Shown here: one piece after another, positions 6,377-64,000 of the stretch
How the letters are laid out: each line of letters starts with the position of its first letter
How positions within the stretch are numbered: the first letter of the stretch is position 1
DNA from: Torpedo marmorata
Lineage: Eukaryota
NCBI GenBank assembly: GCA_977017645.1
Contig: OZ360230.1
Location: 65,782,001 to 65,846,000, forward strand
Direction of reading: 5' to 3'
DNA: 64,000 nucleotides
Translations under genes and position numbers: made by a program
Notes under the pieces: generated by a model
Databases searched by the model: none
What the model was told of the DNA's origin: nothing
What the model saw: only the letters and a program-made list of their open reading frames with translations

Positions 6377-6998
6377 CAGGGGTTCCCAAACTTTTTAAAC
6401 TCACGGAACCCTTTTGAGGAGCACTTGGAAATCGCGGAACCCCAATGGTCATTTACAGTTTAAAAGACCTGGTATATACACAAGCATATAAATAAATAAA
6501 TATAAAGCATATAAAAAAGTAAATAAACTCACCAGTAGCGGATTAACTTCCACCCGGGCCCTAGGCTGAGCTTCAGTAAGGCCCCCCCCCCCTGACCTTG
6601 CCCTGCCATGGGCCCGGGCTACCACCGCCGCCCCTCGCTCCCCGCCACAGGCCTGGCTGCCCCCGTCGCCCCTCGCTCCCCGTTTAGGGAGCGAGCGAGT
6701 GAGCGAGAAGAGGGGGAGGCAGTTTAAATTTTAAAAATGAGGCCAGCCTCGCGCCAAAAGAAATCCGAGTCTTATTGGTTGAAAATGGCGTCTTGAGGCC
6801 TGACGTCTGCGCTGCCGACATCAGGCCTCAAGACGCCATTTTGTTTTGTTAGCGTCAAGCAACTGTTTAGAAACAGGTAAAAAGTAATTTAAATTTAAAT
6901 TAAATAAAAACAGTTTTTTTACAAGTTTTAGTTATTAGTACCCATTTCTTCCGCGGAACCTCTGAGCCTTTCCGCAGAACCCAGTTTGGGAAATGCTG
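6377..6998. mobile_element. hAT (Charlie-like) MITE
   Basis: Termini CAGGGGTTCCCAAACT / AGTTTGGGAAATGCTG; 8-bp flanks CTCTAGGC / CTCTGGGG resemble the Charlie NTCTAGAN target; subterminal CGGAACC motifs. Confidence 0.85.
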
Positions 6999-12744: not shown

Positions 12745-13190
12745 TAAAACACAATGCTGGAGAAACTCAGCAGGTCAAAGAGTGTACATTATATAGCAAA
12801 GATAAAGATACATAACCAATGTTTCGGGCTTGAGCCCTTCATGGTATGAGAAAAATGTAGGCAGTATTGCGTCTTTCCTTCAATCACGGGTAAATCATGA
12901 AAATCTGTAGACGTCGTGGTTGAAATAAAAACACAAAATGCTGGAGAAGCTCAACAGGTCAAACAGTGTCTTTATGTAGCAAAGATAAAGATACATAACC
13001 TATGTAGCAAAGGTAAAGATACATAACCTCTGTAGCAAAGGTAAAGATACATAGGTAAAGATTAAAGGTAAAGGTTATGTATCTTTACCTTTGCTACATA
13101 AAGGACACTGTTTGACCTGCTGAGCTTCTCCAGCATTTTGTGTTTTTCCTTCAATCACGATGTCGGCAGACTTTCGTGTTTTATTCCGAA
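12745..13190. mobile_element. Composite Penelope pLTR insertion including a fold-back (12891-13184)
   Basis: Matches the pLTRs at 39777-39920 and 59107-59214; inverted arms of ~110 bp; flanked by GTATTTCCAAGT (12733-12744 / 13191-13202). Confidence 0.8.
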
Positions 13191-13275: not shown

Positions 13276-13453
13276 GTGAAACACGAAAGTCTGTAGACGC
13301 TGTGATTGTAGTTAAAAACACACCAAATGCTGGAGGAACCCAGCTGGTCTTTTTAGCGTCCATAGGAGACTGAAACGTCAGCAATATATCTTTGTCTCCT
13401 ATGGAAGCTGTAAAGACTGGCTGGGTTCCTCCAGCATTTCGGTGTGTTTTTAG
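13276..13453. mobile_element. Small Penelope-derived fold-back, second subfamily
   Basis: AAAAACACACCAAATGCTGGAGGAACCCAGC is inverted against GCTGGGTTCCTCCAGCATTTCGGTGTGTTTTT; TTTTTAGTGGAAGAG repeated at 13261-13275 and 13447-13461. Confidence 0.75.
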
Positions 13454-20940: not shown

Positions 20941-23900
20941 ATACGATGCAATCGTGGTTTCTGATCATGCACCTTTAAAGCTTTCTGTTGAAATCTCCAG
21001 TGTCACTTCCGGAGTTCAACAATGGCGGTTCAATTCTACTCTGCTTCAGGGTGAGAAATTTATTAAAGATCAGATTTCTTTCTTTTTTCAGACAAATTCC
21101 TCGGAAGGAATGTCCAATCTAGTAATTTGGGATGCACTTAAAGCATTTTTACGAGGACAAATAATTTCTTATTCTGTTGGACTTAGAAAATGTACCAAAA
21201 GTGAACTGACATTACTTGCTAATAGAATTAAAGAGATTGACAGATTATATTCTATGACACCTAGTATGGACCTTTATAAGAAAAGAGTAGAATTTCAAAC
21301 TCAGAATGACTTATTATTAACTTACCCCATCGAGAATCAACTACTTAAACTTAAATCTCAATTTTATGTTCATGGAGAGAAATCAGGTAAGCTGTTGGCT
21401 GGTCAGCTGAAGGCAGCTGCAGCTAAAAGACAAATTATAAGAAGGATGGAAATTTAACTTTTGATCATGCTGAAATTAATAAAGTGTTTCAGGAATTTTA
21501 TTCAGATCTAAACAAATCTGAATTTCCTGATAATTCTATTTTAATGGATAAATTTTTACAATGGTTGAATACTCCTAAAATATCATCAGAAGATCAAAAC
21601 CTGTTGGAAGCTCCAATTTCAGAGTCGGAAGTTTCCCAAGCTATATCTTCTCTTCAATCTGGCAAGGCCCCAGGTAAAGGAAAAGGTTCCATTATAGTCA
21701 TGTAATGCTACATTTAGAATGTAACGTACATGAAATTACTTAATTTTTGTCTACCGTAAGGGCAGACAGAGGGTCGCTACTTTGTCCAGCGCCCCTCACA
21801 GAAACCTACAGTACCTGGTGTTCCTTGGCGGTCTCCCCTCCAAGTACTGACCAGTCCTGTGCCTGCTTAGCTTCCGAGATCAGACAATCCTAGTCGTATT
21901 CAGGTTATTTCTGGATGGCTTTACGGTGGAATTTTTAATATCATTTACTAACTTACTTACTCCTCAACTATGTAAAGTATTTTAAAATTCAGTTTTCTCT
22001 GGGACCCTACCGGCAACTTTTTATGAAGCATCAATTTCACTGATTCCTAAAAAAGATAAAGATCTGACTGAATGTACTTCCTATAGGCCAATTTCTTTGT
22101 TGAATGTAGATTTTAAGGTTGTTTCTAAGATTCTAGCTGGCAGGTTGGAAAATATTTTTCCTTCTGTTATATCTAAAGATCAGACTGGATTTATTAAAAA
22201 TCGATATTCACATTTCAACATCCGTAGATTAATGAACATTAGTTATTCCCCTTCGGACACAATTCCAGAATGTGTAGTTTCTCTAGATGCAGAAAAGGCT
22301 TTTGACAGAGTGGAGTGTAACTATTTATTTGAAACATTAAGAAGATTTAATTTTGGTATGGGTTTTATATCATGGATTAAATTGATCTATAGTACCCCCT
22401 TAGCTATGGTAGTTACTAATAATAACAAATCCTCCTCATTTAGGTTGTTTAGGGGAACTAGACAGGGATGTCCCTTAGCCCCTTGCTATTTGATCTAGCT
22501 TTAGAACCTCTGGCAATAGCCTTTAGAGACTCTCTTGACGTTCAAGGGATTGTCAGAGACGGAGTAACTCATAAGGTTTCTTTGTATGCAGATGACTTAT
22601 TAGTTTATATTTCAGATCCTGAAAGATCTATCCCAGTTATGTTATCTGTGTTTTCTCAATTCAGCTCTTTCTCTGGATATAAATTAAACCTTCATAAAAG
22701 TGAACTTTTTCCGATTAATATGCAGGTCCCTATCTATACTCAAGTTCCATTTAAGATTGCTAGAGATAATTTCACATACTTGGGGGTTAAAATTACTAAA
22801 AGATTTAAAGATTTATATAAACTCAATTTTTCTCCTCTATTTGAGTATGTGAGATTGTCTTTTTCTAGATGGTCTCCTTTATCGTTATCTTTAATAGGTC
22901 GTATTAATGCAGTTAAAATGATAATATTACCTAAGTTTTTATATTTATTTCAAGCAATTCCAGTTTTCATTCCGAAATCGTTTTTTAATAATATTGACTA
23001 AAAAGTTTCTTCCTTCATTTGGAAGAACAAAAACCCTAGAATTAGTTAATTTCATCTACAAAAATTGAAAAAAGATGGAGGTATGGCCTTACAAAATTTT
23101 AGATTTTATTATTGGGCTGCTAATATTCGCTATCTAACTTTTTGGATTTTTTATTCTGATAAATTGGCAGATTTAGAATTGAAATCTATACAGCAGTATT
23201 CAGTGGCCTCTTTATTAGGTGCCTCTCTTCCATTTAGCTTTTCCAAGGTCAATAGGAATATATCTAATCCAATACTCAAACATACATTATGAATCTGGTT
23301 CCAATTTAGGAAATTTTTTAATTTAAAAAACTGTCTTATCTCGTGCTATCTCTCATAACTATTTTTTTTGACCATCAATAATTGATCAATTTTTCTCTAT
23401 ATGGAAAATCAAAGGTATTGTTTCTTTTGCAAATTTATTTAAGGAAGGTTGTTTAATGTCTTTTGAACAGCTTGCAAGTAAATATGACTTACCAAATACT
23501 CATTTTTTTAGATATTTACAGATTAGAAATTTCTTAAATATCATATTACGGGATTTTCCATTTATATATCCACCAGATTTAGTTGATAATATTTTTCAAT
23601 TGAATCCTTCTCAGAAAGGATTAATTGGAATTATATATGATAGATTATTAAAATTGCATCCAGTACTTCATGATAAGATTAAAAAGGCTTTGGAACTGGA
23701 ACTTGCAAGACCCTTATCTGAGGATCTATGGGACAAGATTTTTAAATTGGTAAATACATCTTCTAAATGTGCCTGACATTCATTAATCCAATTCAAAGTG
23801 GTGCATCGTGTTCACATGTCCAAAGGTAAATTGGCTAGTATTTTTTCTAATATTAACCCTATTTGTGACAGATGCAAATCTGAAATTGCTACATTGACAC

Positions 23901-31804: not shown

Positions 31805-33150
31805 ATCTTCGTTAAGACCCCAGAAATTTCCTCTCCTGCCTCTTTCAATAATCTGGGATAATCCCATCATATCCTGGCGGCTCATTTACTTTAATGTTCT
31901 TTATATTAAAAAAAATAGAACCATATCTTTGTTGATCTCAAAAGGCCCAACACATTAGCACTCTCCACACTGCCCTCTCTATCCTCCATGTTTTTCTACT
32001 TGGTGAATACCGATGCAAGGTACTCATTTAGTGCCTCACTCACTCCTTCTTGACTCCAAGCACAGATTTTTCTCCTTCATCCTTGAGTGCTCCTGTTTTC
32101 TCCCTGGTCATCTTCTTGTTTTAAATGCAAGAATAAAATGATTTGGGATTCTCTTTAATCCTGCTTGCCAAGGACACTTCATGGCCCCTTTTGGCCTTCC
32201 CAATATCCTGCTTCAGCTCTTTCCTGCCATCCTTGTATTCCCCAAAGACCCGGTCTGATTTTTGTTTCCTCAACCTTACATATGTTTCTTTTTCCTTTTT
32301 GACTAATTCATGATTTCTCATCATCCAAGGTTCTCTTACCTTGCCATCCCTGTCCTTCCTCCTCACTGCAACCTGCGGTCCTGGACTCTGATCAGCTGGT
32401 TCTTAAACAACTCCCACATTTGAGTTGTAAAGGTAAAGGTTCCATTATTGTCGTGTAATACTACATTTAGAATGTGACATACATGAATTTTTTGTCTACC
32501 GTAAGGCAGACGGATAGTCGCTACTTTGTCCAGCGCCCCTCACAGAAACCTACAGCACCAGGTGTCCCTTGGCAGTCTCCCCTCCAAGTACTGACCAGTC
32601 CTGTGCCTGCTTAGCTTCTGAGATCAGACAATCCCAGTCATATTCAGGCTTGCCTTATAACAACTGCTCCCAATTGACTCATGCCTTATAATGTCAGAAT
32701 TTGTCCTCGCCTAATTTAGTATTTTTCCACAAGGTCCAGGCTTATCCTTACTGATAACTATCTTGTAACTTAAGAAATTGTGATTACTATTCCCCATTGC
32801 TTCGTTATAGAATCTCAGATCACCTGGCCAAGCTCATTTTTCAGTGCAAGGTCTAGTATGACCCCATTCCCTGGTTGGACTGTCCACATGCTATTTCAAG
32901 AATCCCTCCTGGATGCATCCAACAAATTCTGTCCCATCTAAGCCTCCAGCACCAAGGTCACCCTGATCAATATTGGGGAGATTAAAGTCTCCCACTATGA
33001 CAACCCTATTGCTTTTACATATTTCTATAATATTGTCCCCATATTCGTCCCTATATCTCTCAGTGTTTATTGAGAGTCCTATGATATAACCCCATCAGAG
33101 TGAGTATACCTTTCTTAGTTTTGATCTCCACTACTGTCTCAGTTGGTGAG
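31805..33150 (-). mobile_element. Decayed CR1 (APE to pre-RT)
   Basis: LASRIKENPKSFY; VGDFNLPNID on the reverse strand. Confidence 0.8.
32427..32650 (-). mobile_element. 5S rRNA-derived SINE, copy 2
   Basis: Near-identical to 21676-21910; (ACCTTT)n tail. Confidence 0.92.
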
Positions 33151-36589: not shown

Positions 36590-39500
36590 AGTAAAAACAC
36601 AAAGTTGGAGAAACTCAGCAGGTCAAACAGTGTCCTTTATTACTTTTTTAAATGCAATAATTACAGTTATACCAAAGAAAGATAGAGATGTATTGAAAAC
36701 TGAATCTTATAGACCTATTTCATTATTAAATGTAGATTATAAGATAATGGCAAAAATTTTAGCAAATAGAATGGCTAATTATTTACCAGATTTAATCCAT
36801 GTAGATCAAGCTGGTTTTATTAAAAAGAGATATTCAAAAGATAATATAGCTAGATTGATTAGCTTAATTAATTTACATAAAAAGAAGGAAGATTTACCAT
36901 TAGTTTTAACTTTAGACGCTGAAAAGGCTTTTGATAGATTAGAGTGGAATTTTTTATTTAAGGTATTGGAGAAATTTGGTTTTGGAAATACATTTATTAA
37001 TTGGATTAAAACTATATATAAAGAACCATCTGCTAAAGTAGTTACAAATGGACAAATTTCTTCAAAATTTCCTTTGACTCGATCTACTAGACAAGGATGT
37101 CCTTTGTCACCAGCATTATTTATTTTGGCGATAGAACCTTTGGCAGAATTAGTTAGAAAAGATCCTAAAATAGTTGGTATTAAAGTTGGAATGGAAGAAC
37201 ATAAAATTAGTTTGTTTGCAGATGATGTATTGATATATATGACAAAATCTATTACATCCTTAGTACAATTGTCTGTGTTATTGAGAGAATATGGGGAAAT
37301 ATCTGGATATAAAATTAATTCTAATAAAAGTGAAATTATGGCATTATCACAAGGGGATTATAGTAGATGTAAAGAAATTACACAATTTAAATGGGCAAAG
37401 GAAGGAATTAAATATTTGGGAATAAGGGTTGATACAAAATTGGCTAATTTATACAAATTAAATTATCTACCATTATTTGTGAAAATAAAGAAAGATTTAG
37501 AAAATTGGAAAGATTTACCAATAACTTTAATGGGAAGAGTAAATTGTATTAAAATGAATGTTTTTCCAAGAATTCAATATCTTTTTCAATCAATTCCTTA
37601 TGGAATTCCTCAAAATTGTTTTAAAGATTTAAATTCAATTATTAGAAAATTTTTATGGAGAGGAAAGTTAGCAAGAGTAGGTATGGAAAAATTAACTTGG
37701 AATTATGAAATGGGTGGTTTACAACTTCCTAATTTCAAAAATTATTATAAAGCAGCTCAACTAAAATGTGTTAATGAATTTTTTGATTCAACTAAATCTT
37801 CTGCTTGGATTAAAATAGAATTAAATAATATAGGAGAAGATTCCAAAGAAGAAATTATTTATAAATGGGATTCTAAATTAATATCAACAAGAAAGAAAAA
37901 TTCGCCTATTTTAAAACATTTGTTAGAAATATGGAATAAGACGGATAAGGAAATAAGAGGAAAAGAATTGATTTCTTCAAGGATGCCTTTATATCAAAAT
38001 TGACTTATTCCATTTACTATTAATAATCAATTATTTAAAATTTGGTTTCAAAAATGAATTAAGAAGATTAATGATTGTTTTGAAGCTGGGAAATTTATTA
38101 CTTTTCAAAGAATGAAAGATAAATTTAATATATTAGATAATACACTTTTTGCTTATTATCAAATTGGAGCTTTTCTGATTGAGAAATTAGGTTATGCTTT
38201 GATTTTATCAAGACAAAATGAATTAGAATTATTAGTTACTAATGGAGATGTTAATAAATTTATTTCTCAAATGTATAAATTGTTTCAGAGGAAAATGCCT
38301 AAAGTAGGATTGCATAAATCAAGATTAAAATGGGAATTAGATTTGAATGTAAGAATAGATGAAAATCATTGGAAAGAATTATGTAAATTAAGTATGACGA
38401 AGATTATTAATGTTAGATATAGATTAGTACAATACAATTTTTTTCATCAATTATATTTAACACCTAAAAAATTAAAGAAATTTAATCCGACACTATCAGG
38501 TTTATGTTTTAGATGTAATAAAGAGGAAGGGTCTTTTTTACATTCTACATGGATTTGTCCAAAAGTTTATGATTTTTGGTTGAAAGTTAAAATTTTCTTA
38601 GATAAAGTATTTAAGATTACATTTCCAATGGATCCTATGATATTTTTGTTTGGAGATATTAGAAAATTTAGTATTAAGATGAAATTAAATATGTATCAAA
38701 TAGAATTTTTACGAATTGCTTTAGCTGTTTCAAAGAAATGCATTGCTATTACTTGGAAATCTGATTTAGATTTAGGATTAGAAAAATGGCATGCAGAATT
38801 TCGTTCGTGTATACCACTTGTAAAAATTACTTATAATTTACGTAATAAATATCATTTCTTCTTAAAAATTTTGAGCCCATATATGAAAGCTGTTGGTTTA
38901 AGGATTTGAAGATCTCTGGATATCGGATCTACTGGCATACTTGACCTCCATAATAGAATTAGTTTATAGATTGGCATTCCCCTTACTCTATCTTTTTCTT
39001 TCTTTTTCTTCTTCTTTTTCTATTTTTATTTTATATTTTTATTTTTTATTAGATTAGTGGGGTTGGGAGGGTTGGGGAGGGGAGGGAGGGAGAGGGGTGT
39101 GAATATGTATCACAAATAATTTGATAATTTTATATTCTATTTTATGTATTTTGTGATTTAAAAATTTTAAATAAAATATTTTTTTTTAAAAACAAAAAAA
39201 ACAGTGTCCTTTATATAACAAAGGTAAAAATACATAACCGACGTTTCAGGCTTGAGCCCTTCATCAAAGTATGGAAAAATGTCGGCAGGCGTCCGAACAA
39301 AAGAGTAGGGGGAGGGGGAGGAGGAAGAGGAGAGCAGGTTAGCAGAAACCGGAAAAGTTGATGTTAATGCCATCTGGCTGGAGAGTGCCCAGACGGAAAA
39401 TCAGGTGTTGTTCCTCCAATTTGCAAGTGGTCTTGGTGGGACAGTACATAAGGCCATGGACAGACATGTGATTATGGGAGTGTGACACAGAACTGAAATG

Positions 39501-39920
39501 GTTGGCTACTGGGAGGTATCTGTTACTGGTGCGGACGGAGCGAATGTGCTCAGCGAAGCGATCTCCCAATTTGCGCCCAGTCCTGCTCTCCTCTTCCCCC
39601 TCCCCTTCCCAGTTCTCCTCCCTCCCTTCCCCCTCCCTTCCCCCTCCCTTCACCTAGCCATCCCTCCTCCCCTTGATCTCTGCTGTCCCCTCCCTCCTCC
39701 ACCTATCACCTCCTGCCTTTGCGACCCACCCTCCCCCCCCCTACTCTTTTGTCCGGACGCCTGCCGACATTTTCCCATACCTTGATGAAGGGCTCAAGCC
39801 CAAAACGTCGGTTATGAATCTTTACCTTTGCTATATAAAGGACACTGCTTGACCTGCTGAGTTTCTCCAGCTTTGTGTGTTTACTTCAACCATGGTGTCT
39901 GCAGACTTTCGTGTTTTACT
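36590..39920 (-). mobile_element. 5'-truncated Penelope-like element (GIY-YIG C-terminus + pLTR + inverted pLTR), split by a nested L1
   Basis: ORF 39339-39653 TGRKLGDRFAEH..PVANHF..EQHLIFRLGTLQPDGIN; inverted pLTRs 39199-39310 (continuing at 36590-36640) and 39740-39920; 16-bp flanks CCTGTA(A/T)TTACACCAT (36574-36589 / 39921-39936). Confidence 0.9.
36641..39198 (+). mobile_element. 5'-truncated AT-rich L1-like LINE (RT to 3' UTR)
   Basis: YRPISLLN, DAEKAFD, RQGCPLSP, FADD, CFRC..H..W.C; 16-bp TSD AAACAGTGTCCTTTAT (36625-36640 / 39199-39214). Confidence 0.95.
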
Positions 39921-41728
39921 CCTGTATTTACACCATGTTGTGTGTGGAGGCAGTGCTGGGTCACCACTGGCAGGAGTGCAACTGCATTACAAGATTATTT
40001 GTTTGACAGATTCCATTAGTAACACAAACAGGCACTTAAAATACAAATATACGAACATAGGCTCAATGCAAGACAGTTAAGCAGAGATTACGTCTAGGCA
40101 ATGTTATCTATTCTCCAAATCCACCACATAAAAACCACAAAGTACAGGATCATGGGAGTCAAGAGTTATAAAACCATAAGAGAAAGGAGCAGAAATAGGC
40201 TATTCAGCCCATCGAGTCTGCCCTGCCATTTAATCTTAAGATGATCCATTTTCACACTCAGCCTGACTACCAGACTTCTCCCCATAACCTTTGATGCCCT
40301 GGCTAATCAAGAACCTATCAATCTCTGCCTTAAATACACCCAATGTCCTGGCCTCCACAACTGGCTGTGGCAACAAATTCCACAGATTTACCACCCTCTG
40401 GCTAAAGAAATTCCTTCACATTTCTGTTCTAAGCAGGCGTCTTTCAATACTGAAGTTGTGCTCTCTTGTCCTAGACTCTCCCACCATGGGAAACAATCTT
40501 TCTACATCTACTCTGTCCACACCTTTCAACATTCAAAATGTTTCATGAGATCCCTCCTCATTCTCCTAAATTCCAATGAGTACAGGCTAGGAGCTGTCAA
40601 AAGCTCCTCAGATAATAACCCTTTCATTCCCAGAATCATCCTTGTGAACTTCCTCTGAACCCTCTCCAACGTCAGCACATCCTTTCTTAAATGAGGAGCC
40701 CAAAACTGCTCACAATACTCCAAGTGAGGTCTCACCAGTGCCTTATAAAGGCTCAACATCACATCCCTGCTCTTATATTCTATTCCTCTTGAAATGAATG
40801 CCAGCATTGCATTTGTCTTCTTCACCACTGACTCAACATGCAAGTTTACGTTCAGGCTGTCCTGCACGAGGACTCCTAGGTCCCTTTGCATCTGGGTATT
40901 TTCAATTATCTCCCCATTTAAAAAATAGTCTGCCCGTTTATTTTTTCTACCAAAGTGAATGACCGTACACTTTCTGATATTGTATTTTATTTGCCACTTT
41001 TCTGCCCATTATCCTAATCTAAGTCCTTCCACAGCCTCCGTGTTTCCTCGACACTACCTGCTCCTCCATCTACCTTCGTATCAACCACAAAGCTATTCAT
41101 TCCATAATCCAAATCATTAATATACAACATACAACTAGCAACTGGCAGCTAACCAGAATATGATCCCTGTATTCCAACACTCTGGCTTCCTGCCAATCAG
41201 CCAATGCTCTACCCACACGAGTATGTTTCCTGTTATACCACAGGCTCTTATCTTGTTAAGTAGCCTCACGTGTGGCACCTTGTCAAAGGCCTTCTGAAAA
41301 TCCAAATACACATCATTCACTGCATCTCCTTTATCTAGCCTGCTTATAACTTTTTCGAAGATTTCCAATAGATTTGTCGACCGAGATTTTCCCTCAAGGA
41401 AACCACGCTGGCTTTGGCCTATCTTGTCATGTGCCTCCAAGTTCTCCGTAACCTCATCCTTGACAAACGACTCCCACAGCTTTCCAATCACTGATGTCAG
41501 GCTAACCATTTTATAATTTCCTCCCTCCCTTCTTGAAATGTGGTGTGACTTTTGTGATTTTCCAATCCTCCGGGACCATAGCAGAATCTATTGATTCCTG
41601 AAAGATCATTACATGGTTAAATCTATATTTTGGTCGGGTGCAAGCAGCGTTAGAAATGCAAATGTTCCGTACGCACCAACCTAATTTACATTTCGAAAAT
41701 AGAAAGGAAAATTGGATGTAATGGACCC

Positions 41729-49311: not shown

Positions 49312-52300
49312 AATAACAAGTACCTGTATACCATTTTGGATACTGTTGAGGGGGATGACCTACCAGGCACAAGCCATGGCAATCAGGTCTCTGGCATGGA
49401 GTCTGGTCCTGTGGCTAAGAAGGGAAGGGAGGAGAAGAGGCAAGCTGCAGTGATAGGGGATTCCAGAGTTAGGGGGACAGATAAGAGTTTCTGTGGAGGA
49501 GATCGAGTATCCCGGATGGTATATTGCCTCCCAGGTGCCAGGGTCCGAGATATCTCAGATCGAGTTCATGGCATTCTCAGGAGGGAGGGTGAGCAGCCAG
49601 ATGTCGTGGTCCATGTAGGGACCAATGATGTGGGTAGGAAGAGTGAGGAGGTCCTGCAAGGAGAGTTCAGGAAGTTAGGTGCTAGGTTGAAGGAAAGAAC
49701 CTCCAGGGTAGTGATCTCAGGATTGCTACCCGTGCCATGTGCTAGAGAGGTTAGAAATAGGAGGATAATGCAGCTTAACACGTGGCTGAAGACGTGGAGG
49801 GAGGGCTTCAGGTTTCTGGATCATTGGGCTATCTTCCAGGGAAGGTGGGACATGTTCCGACAGGACGGTTTGCATCTGAACTGGAAGGGGACTAATATCC
49901 TTGCAGGCAGGTTTGCTAGTGCTGCTCCGGTGGGTTTAAACTAGATTTGCAGGGGGAGGGGAACCAGAGTGCCAGAGCAGATAGAGGAGTGGAGAAGGGA
50001 AAAGATTATGTTAAAATTGCATGCACCATTAGAAGTCAATGGGTTGAACGTGGTGGAAATTTTCTCAGGTGCATCTATTTCAATGCAAGGAGTATTGTAG
50101 GAAAGGCAGACGAGCTTAGGGCGTGGATTGGCACGTGGAATTACGACATTGTGGCCATTAAGGAATCTGGGTTGCAGGAGGGGAAGGACTGGCAGCTCAA
50201 CGTTCCAGGCTTCCGTTGCTTTACACGCGATAGAATGGGGGGATGAAAGCATTGCTCGTCAGGGAAAATATCACAGCTTGTGCTCAGGCAGGTCAGACAA
50301 GAGAGCTCGTCCACTGAGGCTATATGGGTGGAGCTGAGGAACGCAAGTGGTATGACCACACTCATGGAGTTGTATTATAGACCACCCAATAGTCAGCGAG
50401 AATTGGAGGAGCAAATCTGTAGAGAGTTAGCAGACAGTTGCAGGAAACATAAAGTTGTGATAGTAGGAGATTTTAACTTTGCACATATTGACTGGGACTC
50501 CCATACTGCAAAAGGGCTGGATGGCTTGGAGTTTGTCAAATGTGTTCAGGAAAGTTTTCTAAATCAATATATAGAGGTACCAACTAGAGAGAATGCAATA
50601 CTGGATCTCCTATTAGGGAACAAGACAGGACAGGTGACAGAAATATGTGTAGGGGAACATTTTGGGTCCAGTGATCATAATGCCATTAGTTTCAAGTTAA
50701 TTATGGACAAGGATAGGTCTGGGCCTCGGGTTGAGATTCTAAATTAGAGAAAGGCCAATTTTGAGGAAATGAGAAAGGATCTAGAATGCGTGGATTGGGA
50801 TAGGTTGTTTTCCGGCAAGGATGTGCGAGGTAAGTGGAGGACCTTCAAAGGAGAAATTTTGAGAGTACAGAGTTTGTATGTTCCTGTCAGGATCAAAGGC
50901 CAGGTTAGAAGGTATAGGGAATCTTGGTTTTCGAGGGATCTGGTTCGGAAGAAGAGAGAGGTGTATAACAGGTATAGGCAACATGGAGCAAATGAGGTAC
51001 TTGAGGAGTATATAAAATGCAAGAAAAACTTCAAGAAAGAAACCAGGAAGGCTAAAAAAAAGACATGAGGTTGTTTTGGCAGACAATGTGAAGGAAAATC
51101 CTAAGGGTTTCTACAAGTATATTAAGAGCAAAAGGATAGTAAGGGACAAAATTGGCCTCATTGAAAATCAGCGTGGTCGGCTTGTTATGGAGCCAAAAGA
51201 GATGGGGGAGATCTTACATTTTTTTTTTCATCAATATTCACTCAGGAAACGGGCACAGAGTCGTGGGAAGTAAGGAAAACAAGCAGTGAGGTCATGGAAC
51301 CTATACAGATTAAAGAGGAGGAAGTGCTTGCTGTCTTAAAGCAAATAAGGGTGGATAAATCCCCAGGGCCTGACAAGATATTCCCTCTGACCTTGAGGGA
51401 GGCTAGTGCAGAAATTGCAGGGGCTCTGGCAGAAATATTTAAAATGTCCTTAGCCACGGGTGTGGTGCCAGAGGATTGGAGGGTAGCTCACGTTGTTCCA
51501 TTGTTTAAAAAAGGCTCCAAAAGTAACCCTGGAAATTATAGGCCGGTGAGCCTGACGTCAGTGGTAGGTAAATTATTGGAAGGTGTTCTAAGAGATCAGA
51601 TATACAATTATTTGGATAGCCAGGGACTGATTAGGGATAATCAACATGATTTTGTGTGGTAGGTCGTGTTTAACCAATCTTAGAGTTTTTCGAGGAGGTT
51701 AACAGGAAAGTTGATGAAGGAAAGGCTGTGGATGTTGTCTTCTTGGACATTAGTAAGGCTTTTGACAAGGTTCCGCATGGGAGGTTAGTCAGGAAGGTTC
51801 AGACGCTGGGTATTCATGGTGAAGTAGTAAACTGGATTCGACGATGGTTGGACGGGAGAAGCCAGAGAGTAAAGGTTAAAGATTCCATTATTGTCACGTA
51901 ATACTACATTTAGAATGTAACATACATGAAATTCTTTAATTTTTGTCTACTGTAAGACAGGCAGAGAGTCGCTACTTTGTCCAGCGCCCCTCACAGAAAC
52001 CTACAGCACCTGGTGTTCCTAGGCGGTCTCCCCTCCAAGTACTGACCAGTCCTGTGCCTGCTTAGCTTACGAGATCAGACAATCCCAGTCATATTCAGGC
52101 TATTGGTGCTGTGATTGCTTCTCAGATTGGAGGCCTGTGGCTAGTGGTGTGCCTCAGGGATTGGTACTGGGATCATTGTTGTTTGTCATCTATATCAATG
52201 ATCTGGATGATAATGTGGTAAATTGGATCAGCAAGTTTGCAGATGACACTAAGATTGGAGGTGTTGTGGACAGCGAAGAAGGTTTTCAAAGCTTGCAGAG

Positions 52301-57870: not shown

Positions 57871-58939
57871 TTGAGTTAGAAAACAAATTCTTTGTTTGCT
57901 CAACATTCCAGGATCTGCGGCTTTTGTGTTTCTCATACTTTTCTGTGTATGTCTGTGACCTCAGCTCTGCTGCCTTATGCATTATACCCTTTGCATTTGG
58001 ACATACACTATAAAGCATGCCAGTCTTCTCGATAATGTATTGTGGAGGAGGGTGCTCAAAGGACAAGCTGAGAAATGAAAGATTGATCAACAGGAGGTTT
58101 AAACGGGAGAAACAGAACGAACACCTGAAATTCCCCAAATAAAAAATGAATATCAGTTGCTTCTCCCATTGAAACTTCCTGTCCATCAATTTTCGATTGC
58201 TCAGCTTGCCCCTTGAACACATTCTTCTATACTGAAAATCCAAATAAAAATTGAAAATGCTGAAACAGTCAGCAGGCGAGCCAGCATCTATGGAGAGTGA
58301 AAACGAATTCATAAAAAAATATGGTGTGAGGAATCCATCTTATGAGATCAAAAACTAACAGGAGAAAGGAAGACTTGTCAAAAACATGGCCTGTCTCTCT
58401 GCCAGAACAGATGTGGCAACACTGGAAAAACTGGGGGAATGGAATCGAACCGTTACAGGCAGCAGCGGGAGAGGACCTCCAGACAAGTACAAGGTAATGC
58501 ACTTCCAGACGTCAAATACCAACAGGGACCTCAGAAATGATGATGTACAGAGGGATCTCGGAGTTCATAAATCCCTAAAATGGATATGGTTATGTATAAG
58601 GCATTTGGCATGTTTTCCCTCACAAGTGAAGACACTGAATGTAAGAGTTGAGACATCATGATGAATTGGAACGTCATGCCACACTTGGTGTATTGTGTAG
58701 AGTTCTCGTTCCCATGCGACAGAAAGGAATGCTACTTGGAATGGGGAGCTGTAGTTATGAGGAAAGACTTGATAGGCTGAGTTTGTTCTCACTGGAACGC
58801 AGGAGGAGGAGGGGTGACCTAACAGAGGTTTATAAAATTATAAGGGGCATAGACAGGGTAGACAGTCAGTCTCGTTCCCAGGATTAGAGGAGAAATTTAA
58901 AGGGGACCTGAGGGAAAAGTATTTCACACAGAGGGTAGG

Positions 58940-59214
58940 AGTAAAACACGAAAGTCTGCAGACCCCGTGGCTGTAGTAAAAACACAATGCTGGAGATACT
59001 CAGCAGGACAAACAGTGTACTTTATAGAGCAAAGATAAAGATATACATAACCAATGTTTCGGGCTTGAGCCCTTCATCAAGGTACGAGCAAAATGTAGGC
59101 AGGCGCATACCTTGATGAAGGGCTCAAGCCTGAAACGTCGGTTATGTATCTTTATCTTTGCTCTATAAAGTACACCGTTTGACCTGCTGAGTTTCTTCAG
59201 CACTGTGCTTTTAC
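58940..59214. mobile_element. Penelope pLTR fold-back element with two hammerhead-like motifs
   Basis: Arms ~58975-59084 and 59108-59214 are reverse complements; TTCACACAGAGG repeated at 58923-58934 / 59215-59226. Confidence 0.88.
59108..59145 (+). ncRNA. Putative minimal type I hammerhead ribozyme motif (C3U variant)
   Basis: ATACC-TTGATGA-A-GGGC TCAA GCCT-GAAAC-GTC-GGTTAT: helix I, core, helix II, palindromic ACGT helix III. Confidence 0.6.
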
Positions 59215-59836
59215 TTCACACAGAGGATGGTGGTATGTGGAATGAGCTGCGCGGGGAGGTGATCGAGGCTGATACAACTTTTAAAAGGCATTTGGGTAGG
59301 AAAGGAGCAGAGGGTCTAATGCAGGCAAACAGGATTATTACCGTAGGCAGGCATGACAGTTGGCATGGTCGAGTTGAACAAGGTGGGACGAAGGGCCTGG
59401 TTCTGTGCTGGATAGCTCTATTACTCTAAATATCATTGAAGATTGCTCCCAGCATTTTCTGGTTTTATTTTGTGACATGTTATCTCTTTTTTTATTTCCC
59501 TACATACAATTTCTGGCCTGCTCAGTAATTCCAGGGTCTACTATTGTTCATCTCAATCTCACCCTTAAAGTTAAATCTGTACAGTTCAACCATCACTCCG
59601 CCGCGGTGTCTAGGAAACTTGAGACAATTAATCCATCTTGCAGCCAAAAAATGGTTGATGGACTCATGATAAAATTTAATAGTTGAAATGATGCAAACAA
59701 GCAGAATGGACCCTCAAACAAGTTAGTGAAGTATTCATTAAGATCAGGGTGGTATTAGTGGGGCCCAGGCATTTAGGAATAACAGAGGCGCACGGGTTTT
59801 CAGGAGTAACAGCAGGGTAATGGAAGCGAATCCATT

Positions 59837-60340: not shown

Positions 60341-61295
60341 AAACATTCCTAGCAGTTAATAATTTGAATCCCATGATGAGGTTGGTTTCTTCTAACTCAT
60401 TCCCAGCTGCTTGGATTACGTGGTATTACTTTCAATAAATATTCAATAAAGTCTTAATAAGTGATTCTCTCAAATCTGCATCAAAGTTTAAACTCTGGTC
60501 TGATGCAGGCAGGCTGTTTCCACTCTTGATATGATCCCTTTGACACTCGACTCTCAGGCTCTTTCTGCTTTTAGCCCTGAGTGTCTATTACTGCTGACTG
60601 GACACCAATAACACCAAGGAAACAGACATTTCAGAGGGCAGACACTGAGATTAGACTCTAGTTCTAATGGAAGGCAGTTTCATATTGGTAGCAATTTCAG
60701 ATTTCCACATCAATACTGTTTTTAGATTAGATCAGGTTTTAGATTATATCAGACTAGATCATTAAAATGGAATACAAATCTGGTGTAATGACATGAGAAC
60801 ACAAGAAATGGAAGCCAAAAGAGGTCAATAAGCCTCACGAATCTGTCCTGCCAATTAATAAGAACATGGTGATCTGCTTCTACCCACCTTTCCTCCACAT
60901 GCCCATATTTTCGATTTACTTCATGTCCAAAAATCTGTTTACATAAGTCTTGAATACCCGCATCAAATTCCAATGCTTTACAACCCTATATGTAAAGAAA
61001 TTGCTCCTTATTTCAGTCTTAATGGCAGAGAGTTTACCTTGGGACCATACACATATACTGCAGTTTTTTTTAAATTAATTTTTTTTAAAATATTTTATTT
61101 AAAATTTTAAATCACAAAATACACAAGATAAAATATAAAATTGTCAAAATACATGTGATACATTTTCACCCCCCCGATGCCTCCCTCCCCTCCCTAACCC
61201 TCTGACCCCTTCTAATCTAATAAAAATAAAAAGAAAGAAAGAAGGAAAAAGATAGTATAAGGAGAATGTCAATCTAAAAAATACATCAATAACTA

Positions 61296-62158
61296 CCGTA
61301 TATTTCGGCGTATAAGTCGACCGGCGTATAAGTCGACCCCCCTTTTTCAGCCTCATTTTAATGGTTTTATGGTATATCCGGCGTATAAGTCGACCCCAAA
61401 AATCTCGATGCCTGAGATGTTGCGCATTGACCGGCGTATAAGTCGACCCCCAATTTTCAGGCTGTCTGGGCCTCCCAGCAACAACCCAAAATTTGTTACA
61501 ACATCCCAATCGCCAAGTAACAAAGCTGTAAATTAAGCAAGTACCGGTAAGTAAAAAAAACAGTAAAATAAACCTTTGCTTCTGGCCGGGAAGATGCAGG
61601 TGCGGCGACGTCTTTCTCCCGAGCAGGAGCGGGGACTCATTCTCCCGAGCAGTAGCGGGGAGCTCGTTCTCCCAGGCAGGAACGGGGAGCTCGTTCTCCC
61701 GAGCAGTAGCGGGGAGCTCGTTCTCCCGAGCAGGAACGGGGAGCTCATTCTCCCAGGCAGGAACGGGGAGCTCGTTCTCCCAGGCAGGAACGGGGAGCTC
61801 GTTCTCCCGAGCAGTAGCGGGGAGCTCGTTCTCCCAGGCAGGAACGGGGAGCTCGTTCTCCCGGGTAGGAGCGGGGAGCTCAGGCTCTACAATTGTAGAA
61901 TGTCTGGGTGGTTTATGGCGGCGCCCGGCAGTGGGGAGGTGTCGGGGAGCGGCGGCGCCGGCGGTGGGGAGGCGCTTCCAGGGTCGACCTATACGCCGAA
62001 TCGTGTTTTCAGGGGTCGACTTATACGCCGAATCGGCGTGAACTCGATTTTGAGCTGATTTTAAGGTCTCAAAAGTATATCCGGCGTATAAGTCGACCCC
62101 CGTTTTTTGAGACATTTTTGAGGGTTTCAAGGGTCGACTTATACGCCGAAATATACGG
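61296..62158. mobile_element. Tc1/mariner superfamily (Tc2/pogo-like) non-autonomous DNA transposon
   Basis: Perfect TIR CCGTATATTTCGGCGTATAAGTCGACC; TA duplicated at 61294-61295 / 62159-62160. Confidence 0.92.
61613..61881. repeat. 27-bp minisatellite, ~10 units (GTTCTCCCRRGCAGKARCGGGGAGCTC)
   Basis: Direct reading of the units; 9-aa periodicity in the overlapping ORFs. Confidence 0.95.
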
Positions 62159-64000
62159 TAATTTTATTATGGAGGATAGGTTCGCCAGTCAGATCCAATG
62201 TCCAGAGATCTTCAAATCCTTAAACCAACAACTTTAATATAAGGGCTCCATATTTTCAAAAAGAAATGATATTTATTACATAAATTATAAGTAATTTTTT
62301 CAAGTGGTATACAAGAATGAAGTTCTGCATGCCATCTTTCTAACCCAAAATCTACATCAGATTTCCAAGTAATAGCAATACATTTCTTAGAAACAGCTAA
62401 AGCGATTCGCAAAAATTCTATTTGATACATATTTAATTTCATCTTAATACTAACTCTTTTAATATCACCAAACAAAAATATCATAGTGTCCATTGGGAAT
62501 GTAATTTTTAATACTTTATCTAAAACGTTTTTAACTTTCAACCAAAAATCATAAACTTTTGGACAAAACCATGTAGAATGTACGAAAGAACCTTCCTCTC
62601 TATTACATCTAAAACATAAACCTGATAATGTCGCATTAAATTTCTTTAACTTTTTAGGTGTTAAATATAATTGATGAAAAAAATTATATTGAACTAATCT
62701 ATATCTAACATTAATAATCTTCGTCATACTTAATTTACATAGTTCTTTCCAATGATCTTCATCTATTGTTACATTCAAATCTAATTCCCACTTTAATCTT
62801 AATTTATGAATTCCTATTTTAGGGATTTTTCTCTGAAACAATCTATACATTTGGGAAATAAATTTATTTACACTCCCGTTAGTAACTAATAATTCTAACT
62901 CACTCTGTCTTGGTAGAATCAAATTATAACCTAATTTCCAAACTAAATGCTCTAATTTGATAATAAGCAAAAAGTGTATCATCCAATATATTGAACTTAT
63001 CTTTCATTCTTTGGAAAGTATTAAATTTACCAGCTTCAAAACAGTCATTTATTTTCTTAATTCCTTTTTGAAACCAAATTTTAAATAATTATTTATCGAC
63101 AGTAAATGGAATAAGTTCATTTTGATATAGAGGCATTTTTGGAGAAATCAACCCTTTTCCTCCTATCTCCCTATCCACTCTATTCCATATTTCTAACAAA
63201 TGTTGAAAAATAGGAGAGTTCTTCCTTCTAGTTAATATTAATTTAGAACTCAATTTATAAATAACTTCTTCTTTGAAATCTTCTCCTATATTATTTAATT
63301 CTATTTTAATCCAAGCAGAAGACTTAGTTAAATCAAAGAATTCATTAACAAATTTTAGTTGAGCTGCTTTATAATAATTTTGAAAATTAGGAAGTTGTAA
63401 ACCACCCATTTCATAATTCCAAGTTAATTTCTCTATACCTACCCTAGCCAACTTTCCTTTCCACAAAAACTTCCTAATAATTAAATTTAAATCTTTTTTA
63501 AAATTTTGAGGGATTTCATAAGGAATTGATTGAAAAAGATATTGAATTCTTGGAAAAACCTTCATTTTAATACAATTTACCCTTCCCATTAAAGTTATAG
63601 GTAAATCCTTCCAACTCTCTAAATCTTTTTTAATTTTCATAAATAATGGTAAATAATTTAATTTATATAAATTAGCTAATTTTGTATCAATCTTTATTCC
63701 CAAATATTTAATTCCTTCTTTTGCCCATTTAAATTGTGTAATTTCTTTACATTTACTATAATCCCCTTGCATTAATGCCATAATTTCACTTTTATCAGAA
63801 TTAATCTTATAACCAGATATTTCCCCGTATTCTCTCAATAAAGCAGTCAATTGTATTAAAGAAGTAATAGGCTTTGTCATATAAATCAATACATTATCTG
63901 CAAATAAACTAATTTTATGCTCTTCTCTTCCGACTTTAATACCTGCAATCTTAATATCTTGTCTAATTAATTCTACCAAAGGTTCTATTGCTAAAGTAAA

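Follow-up and report, generated by a model that had tools for sequence, protein, structure and literature searches.

The stretch of Torpedo marmorata DNA analysed here (the window: 64,000 nucleotides of contig OZ360230.1, assembly GCA_977017645.1, positions 65,782,001 to 65,846,000 of the forward strand) carries at 58940-59214 an insertion of 275 bp made of two inverted Penelope 3′ ends, as the preliminary description had recognised. The host sequence around it is a LINE 3′ region. The arms are about 90% complementary (58972-59043 with 59147-59218 at 90%, and 59043-59089 with 59103-59149 at 89%), and the predicted minimum folding energy of the fold-back, -176 kcal/mol, corresponds to a z of -22 and was equalled by none of 200 shuffles. 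Counted from the predicted hammerhead cut, the left or long-end arm (58940-59105, minus strand) spans +110 to about -52 of the element's 3′ non-coding end, and the right or short-end arm (59106-59214, plus strand) spans -34 to +74. Their outer ends are unequal: a tail of about 35 nt, equivalent to the segment by which the long 3′ end of the element exceeds the short one, is present on the left (58940-58973, minus strand) and not on the right. The flanking duplication, earlier described as of at least 12 bp, comprises 12 exact bases (58923-58934 and 59215-59226); it extends to 16 bases with two mismatches (58923-58938 and 59215-59230, plus strand), and a single copy of the host LINE that matches both flanks gives an overlap of 17. 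G58939 may be a further element base beyond the left edge, and the four target bases directly beyond the short-end arm also fit the element sequence. The spacer of about 22 nt described previously does not exist: 59087-59105 belongs to the left arm and is element sequence from further upstream. The two arms meet at 59105/59106 with one base common to both, the centre (59087-59106, not assigned to a strand) being made of this upstream sequence and of the junction with its shared base, 59106.

The parent of the fold-back is a very abundant Neptune-type Penelope-like element (PLE). The arms run on upstream into a reading frame that ends in a GIY-YIG endonuclease (Pfam E 3e-4; 21.4 bits, slightly below the cut-off of 22.6). 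In longer copies this domain is preceded by a C-x4-C-x2-C linker, and RT motifs, including DKG, can be read by eye; the Pfam search with the parent frame returned no RT match and the PDB sequence search no match. Such a linker suggests the Neptune clade, in which Craig et al. 2021 (PMC8557442) describe a CX2-5CxxC motif between the RT and the endonuclease; Nematis likewise has a linker of this type. Insertions of EN+ PLEs can have an inverted 5′-truncated pLTR, with an optional tail of 30-40 nt and a target-site duplication (PMC3846280, PMC8557442), and the inverted 5′-truncated copy, the tail at one end and the duplication are all found here. The fold-back is thus a real but ordinary PLE stub, of a layout that is already published.

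A longer head-to-head copy of the family lies in the window at 39199-39921, with the endonuclease C-terminus on its left arm (39342-39584, minus strand); this copy is also internally rearranged. Searching the 6.2-Gb genome with its endonuclease C-terminus gave 214,327 first-look candidates, which may include related families. In 80 unselected 10-kb stretches we counted 34 insertions whose 3′ end is at least 82% identical, or about one per 24 kb, from which we estimate a genome load of roughly 260,000 insertions. The 32 non-edge insertions of these stretches comprise four complete head-to-head copies, six partly inverted, 20 solo and two tandem ones; in 28 loci selected for the core motif, eight of 32 non-edge insertions were complete head-to-head copies, all with one long and one short end and of 245 to 1,358 bp. 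Head-to-head copies form a size series from less than 200 bp to more than 3 kb, with the 275-bp fold-back at its short end, and the long-plus-short layout is also found at 300-1,400 bp, at about 2 kb (L151) and at about 3.5 kb (L154). A young subfamily (L225-L244), with arms 98-100% alike and clean duplications of 12-17 bp, may have been recently active; many of its copies have an A at core position 7.

Each arm of the fold-back carries a minimal type I hammerhead-like motif with a U3-G8 core, at 59106-59146 on the plus strand (U3 at 59112, predicted cut between 59139 and 59140) and at 59046-59086 on the minus strand (U3 at 59080). Both motifs had been noticed earlier, with a helix III reduced to ACGU; this holds for the plus motif only, as in the minus motif the palindrome is lost (ACAU) and H17 is a U. 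In the plus motif, helix I has 6 bp with one bulge, an extra base follows A9, and the 4-bp helix II has G10.1-U11.1 instead of G-C. The ACAU and the U at H17 on the minus arm, together with the G10.1-U11.1 on the plus arm, indicate that both motifs have decayed from the family state. The UUGAUGA core is present as described, and it is not a peculiarity of this copy. Indeed, genome-wide, U3-G8 is found in 24,574 exact 22-mers, and in 489 others position 3 is A, C or G; U3 occurs in 47 and G8 in 46 of 48 aligned family copies, and U3 stands opposite G8 in 98% of family copies, including those of the young subfamily with nearly identical arms. U3 with G8 is therefore the family's own state and not a product of decay. 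The compensated U3-A8 is rare (one of 32 family cores in random stretches). In 48 copies examined as hammerheads, helix I, helix II, the base after A9, the palindromic helix III and the UH cut site were all found, and the family lacks the C3-G8 or compensated U3-A8 core pair that a minimal type I hammerhead requires. The Rfam scan of the window gave no match to hammerhead families. An uncompensated change at position 3 is expected to lower hammerhead cleavage.

The minimal hammerheads of metazoan PLEs, as described by Cervera and de la Pena 2014 (PMC4209133), are of type I with an extra base between 9 and 10.1. They have in common with this family the G10.1-C11.1 pair, the palindromic 15.2-16.2 and the type I topology, and pairs of motifs on opposite strands, 100-700 bp apart, were already noted there. 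The core variant that the consulted part of that paper names is the compensated U3-A8 of Schistosoma, whereas that of the present family is U3-G8. A natural U3 core from a halophile is mentioned in PMC7151607 and the PLE hammerhead variants of Lunse et al. 2017 are recounted in a review (PMC6765202); U3-G8 variants may already be listed in Lunse et al. 2017 or in the supplements of PMC4209133.

As the preliminary description had proposed, the hairpin is predicted to hide both motifs: in the model, read-through RNA folds into a duplex of 111-115 bp (111 bp on the sense strand) and the pair probabilities of helices I and II fall to about 0. Such a duplex, and the small RNAs of PLEs reported in rotifers and flies (PMC3846280), would suit a hairpin co-opted by the host as a source of small RNAs or as an RNA switch. 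We hold this to be very improbable. The long reading frames of the window resemble, by eye, fragments of LINEs or other repeats with no host exon evident, decay has proceeded separately in the two arms, which differ at 8 of 84 nt, and in Rfam the fold-back obtains a generic hairpin score only, of 54 bits against a cut-off of 140.

Nor is the insertion likely to have spread as a hairpin. A MITE-like, propagating family had been suggested, and this suggestion failed: the exact 22-base junction of the fold-back occurs once in the 6.2 Gb, beside three joints with one mismatch (of which two share a contig, at a distance of 120 kb), and among the 25 best loci, this one included, the 22 centres that could be parsed all differ, three giving no parse. 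The many copies of the same structure that a MITE or another non-autonomous unit requires were not found. What could still speak for a MITE-like or SINE-like unit copied as such is that fold-backs of similar size are common, tight-centre patterns matching 586 loci (anchor -29) and 851 loci (anchor -20), and that some centres recur, one of them being common to eight of the first 50 matches listed. However, in 20 loci chosen for three recurrent joints, tail variants were mixed across the joints, and at the commonest joint (ten loci) the tail was found five times on each arm and in different variants. Since the tail can be on either arm and its variants are mixed, these centres are microhomology joints, rebuilt at complementary bases rather than inherited. 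Moreover, the sizes are continuous up to ORF-bearing copies, the ends are unequal and the duplications are of 12-17 bp. DNA-transposon MITEs differ from elements having unequal ends and such duplications. This reading is already largely refuted and we give it hardly any credence; the fold-back is a dead repeat and no mobile unit in its own right. Non-LTR retrozymes, in the portion of the preprint used here (bioRxiv 10.64898/2026.07.22.740005), are likewise non-coding and PLE-derived, with a type I hammerhead. They are, however, head-to-tail tandem repeats, while no head-to-tail unit was found at 58940-59214, which is a single head-to-head pair with a unique structure.

How, then, are two truncated ends brought together? 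Across the family, the element 3′ ends fall in two clusters, at +71 to +79 and at +108 to +110 from the predicted cut, with breakpoints placed against 49 real copies as references. Both ends could be classified in 59 of 76 short head-to-head pairs (17 being unclassifiable): 51 have one long and one short end, five have two short and three have two long ends, against 50% long-plus-short expected under independence (p 4e-9). The proportion is 32 of 36 after removal of the set picked by the whole fold-back. A duplication above the cut-off is present in 43 of the 51 long-plus-short pairs and in 10 of 200 random flank pairs, the median target-site duplication in short pairs being 14 bp. The arm with the tail reaches further upstream in 19 long-plus-short pairs, the short arm in 19, and the two are equal in 10. 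At the junction, the arms overlap in 29 of 71 pairs, and a gap of zero or more bases is found in 42 of 71. The two arms of an insertion resemble each other more than those of different insertions: in young pairs (19, excluding L233 and including two mis-anchored outliers) we found 3.3 differences per 84 nt within insertions against 6.2 between them, and in older pairs (40) 7.2 against 10.2. Gene conversion within the hairpin, or few sources being active at once, could account for this similarity.

These results bear on a mechanism published for Adineta elements (Arkhipova et al. 2013, PMC3846280), according to which a single cDNA or antisense template folds and is copied back, with the endonuclease trimming one end. 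Shared bases at the junction in 29 of 71 pairs and private variants common to both arms are in agreement with such self-priming. However, the tail-less arm reaches further in 19 of 48 long-plus-short pairs, that is, in half of the unequal ones, which is impossible for a single folded cDNA and favours priming at two sites; in addition, the same joint is found with the tail on either arm, and some centres are perfect palindromes without a loop. Taken together, the 51 long-plus-short pairs out of 59, the median duplication of 14 bp and the 19:19 reach favour separate priming over the published self-priming, which we regard as unlikely for this family, although a version of it with an antisense template may still apply.

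We consider it probable that the fold-back is a doubly 5′-truncated PLE insertion, produced in a single event, with the two nicked target strands both acting as primers for reverse transcription of element RNA. The ends, centres and duplications are observed in the copies, and from these we infer the priming and joining steps. The endonuclease would make staggered nicks about 14-16 bp apart. Of the two DNA ends, one would then prime at +110, the long start site, and its partner at about +75, the short one, on one RNA or on two RNAs of the same source element; priming at two start sites 35 nt apart would leave the tail on one arm only. Both cDNAs would pass through an uncut hammerhead and halt early, here at -52 and -34. 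As both arms cross the cut site, either the template was uncut or the RT passed over the nick. The 3′ ends of the cDNAs would be joined, often by pairing of a few complementary bases or with a little filler in between, and each would be copied against its partner. The product would be a dead stub, which does not move again as a unit. The fold-back has its arms, tail asymmetry and duplication in common with copies that retain RT and endonuclease frames. Against this explanation, it must be said that most insertions are not clean fold-backs (four of 32 non-edge insertions are complete head-to-head copies), that most solo copies have no duplication at the crude boundaries used, that eight of 59 pairs break the long-plus-short rule, and that the arms at many junctions have no base in common or are separated by filler.

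More tentatively, and with slightly less than an even chance in our estimation, an asymmetric complex could load one target end per fixed RT start site, giving exactly one tail to each inverted insertion, and the U3-G8 fold could have been kept through about a quarter of a million insertions for its value as a structural or boundary signal, and not for cleavage. Two further fold-backs may be mentioned here. At L054:1093-1804 a 51-nt unit (element positions of about +27 to +80) is repeated in tandem at the end of both arms, which suggests repeated re-priming at the short start site; in the fold-back L066:2799-2936 the tailed arm is barely more than the tail and stops near the short start site.

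Priming from two target ends is known elsewhere. In L1 twin priming, two target ends prime one insertion and leave an inversion within the duplication. The L1 cDNAs copy different parts of the RNA, whereas both Torpedo arms are copies of one part, begun at fixed start sites separated by 35 nt. An in vitro precedent is PAc, a Poseidon PLE of Anolis, for which Frangieh et al. 2024 (PMC11167929) found in vitro that both strands are cut and extended, that the RT uses two start sites flanking the tail, and that uncut RNA is the main template; the later steps of insertion were left open in the consulted part of that study. PAc belongs to another clade, and its ribozyme and start sites overlap the start of the ORF, whereas those of the Torpedo family follow the stop codon; its C3-G8 core is intact, in contrast to the U3-G8 core found here. 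The PLEs of PMC3846280 and PMC8557442 are alike in their head-to-head ends, the tail at one end, the duplication and a short overlap at the inverted junction. The duplications of the Adineta PLEs are of 8-10 bp (PMC3846280) and those of the Torpedo fold-backs of 12-17 bp. Unlike the cases given in the parts of these two papers drawn on here, both copies of the Torpedo fold-back retain nothing but the non-coding 3′ end, and 51 of the 59 classifiable pairs of the family carry the tail on one arm and not on the other. In the literature searched, outside of which lay most subscription papers and Repbase, we found no prior statement of two-site twin priming by PLEs or of shark PLE hairpins. The inverted ends of PLEs, their one-sided tails and the role of the hammerhead are open questions in the papers cited, and the family counts matter modestly in this respect; sharp predictions for the in vitro system of PMC11167929 follow from the fixed U3-G8 core, from the long-plus-short rule and from the 19:19 reach of the arms.

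We also considered a pile-up of arm ends at the cut site as a sign of cleavage in vivo, and rejected it as a general feature, ends not being enriched there. Both ends lie within 15 nt upstream of the cut in 159 fold-backs, against 586 and 851 for the patterns anchored at -29 and -20. Among 50 fold-backs listed, none has both arms ending at the cut without a gap, and about 12, by an eye count, have a single arm that stops at this point, the number expected of a uniform spread (about 23%); these one-arm ends mostly show a CC/GG overlap to helix II. Only one of 148 unselected arms ends at 0. A minority of templates may be cut at the hammerhead. In the window, the fold-back at 12890-13186 has both arms starting at the predicted cut, and its stuttered centre is made of repeated short element copies, two of which end at the predicted cut. 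It is a single hint of a cut template, the general pattern being unsupported.

Arm ends are more frequent further upstream. Ends at -32 to -35 were found in 16 of 148 arms, the neighbouring positions on both sides having about 0.6 per base, most of these arms coming from the set picked by likeness to the window arm and several being paired within one locus; no such end was seen among the anchor arms of the 28 core-picked loci. Genome-wide, 240 matches depart from the element just upstream of -33 and four at the control position, -42, although this control omits the subfamily of 58940-59214 and partner-arm overlap explains part of the 240. The listed -33 matches all come from outside the first 155 Mb of C1. 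After a rough correction for strictness, about 4-8% of arms would end at -33, against about 0.5% per base. At -33 helix I has its 5′ edge, and the right arm of 58940-59214 likewise begins there. An RNA 5′ end, a barrier to the RT and microhomology are all possible sources of this peak.

Several other repeats lie in the window. Two further fold-backs are older and more decayed, one at 13276-13452, which resembles a related Penelope family, and one at 58045-58227, the arms of which are 66-77% complementary. Three 5S rRNA-like matches (21803-21931, 32547-32665 and, on the minus strand, 51998-52116) adjoin LINE fragments and are likely heads of 5S-derived SINEs. A short GC-rich hairpin of 61 bp is found at 6782-6842. 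Finally, the repeat at 61144-62163 contains internal tandem units of about 33 bp that give a long open frame, and a similar sequence is present in L157.
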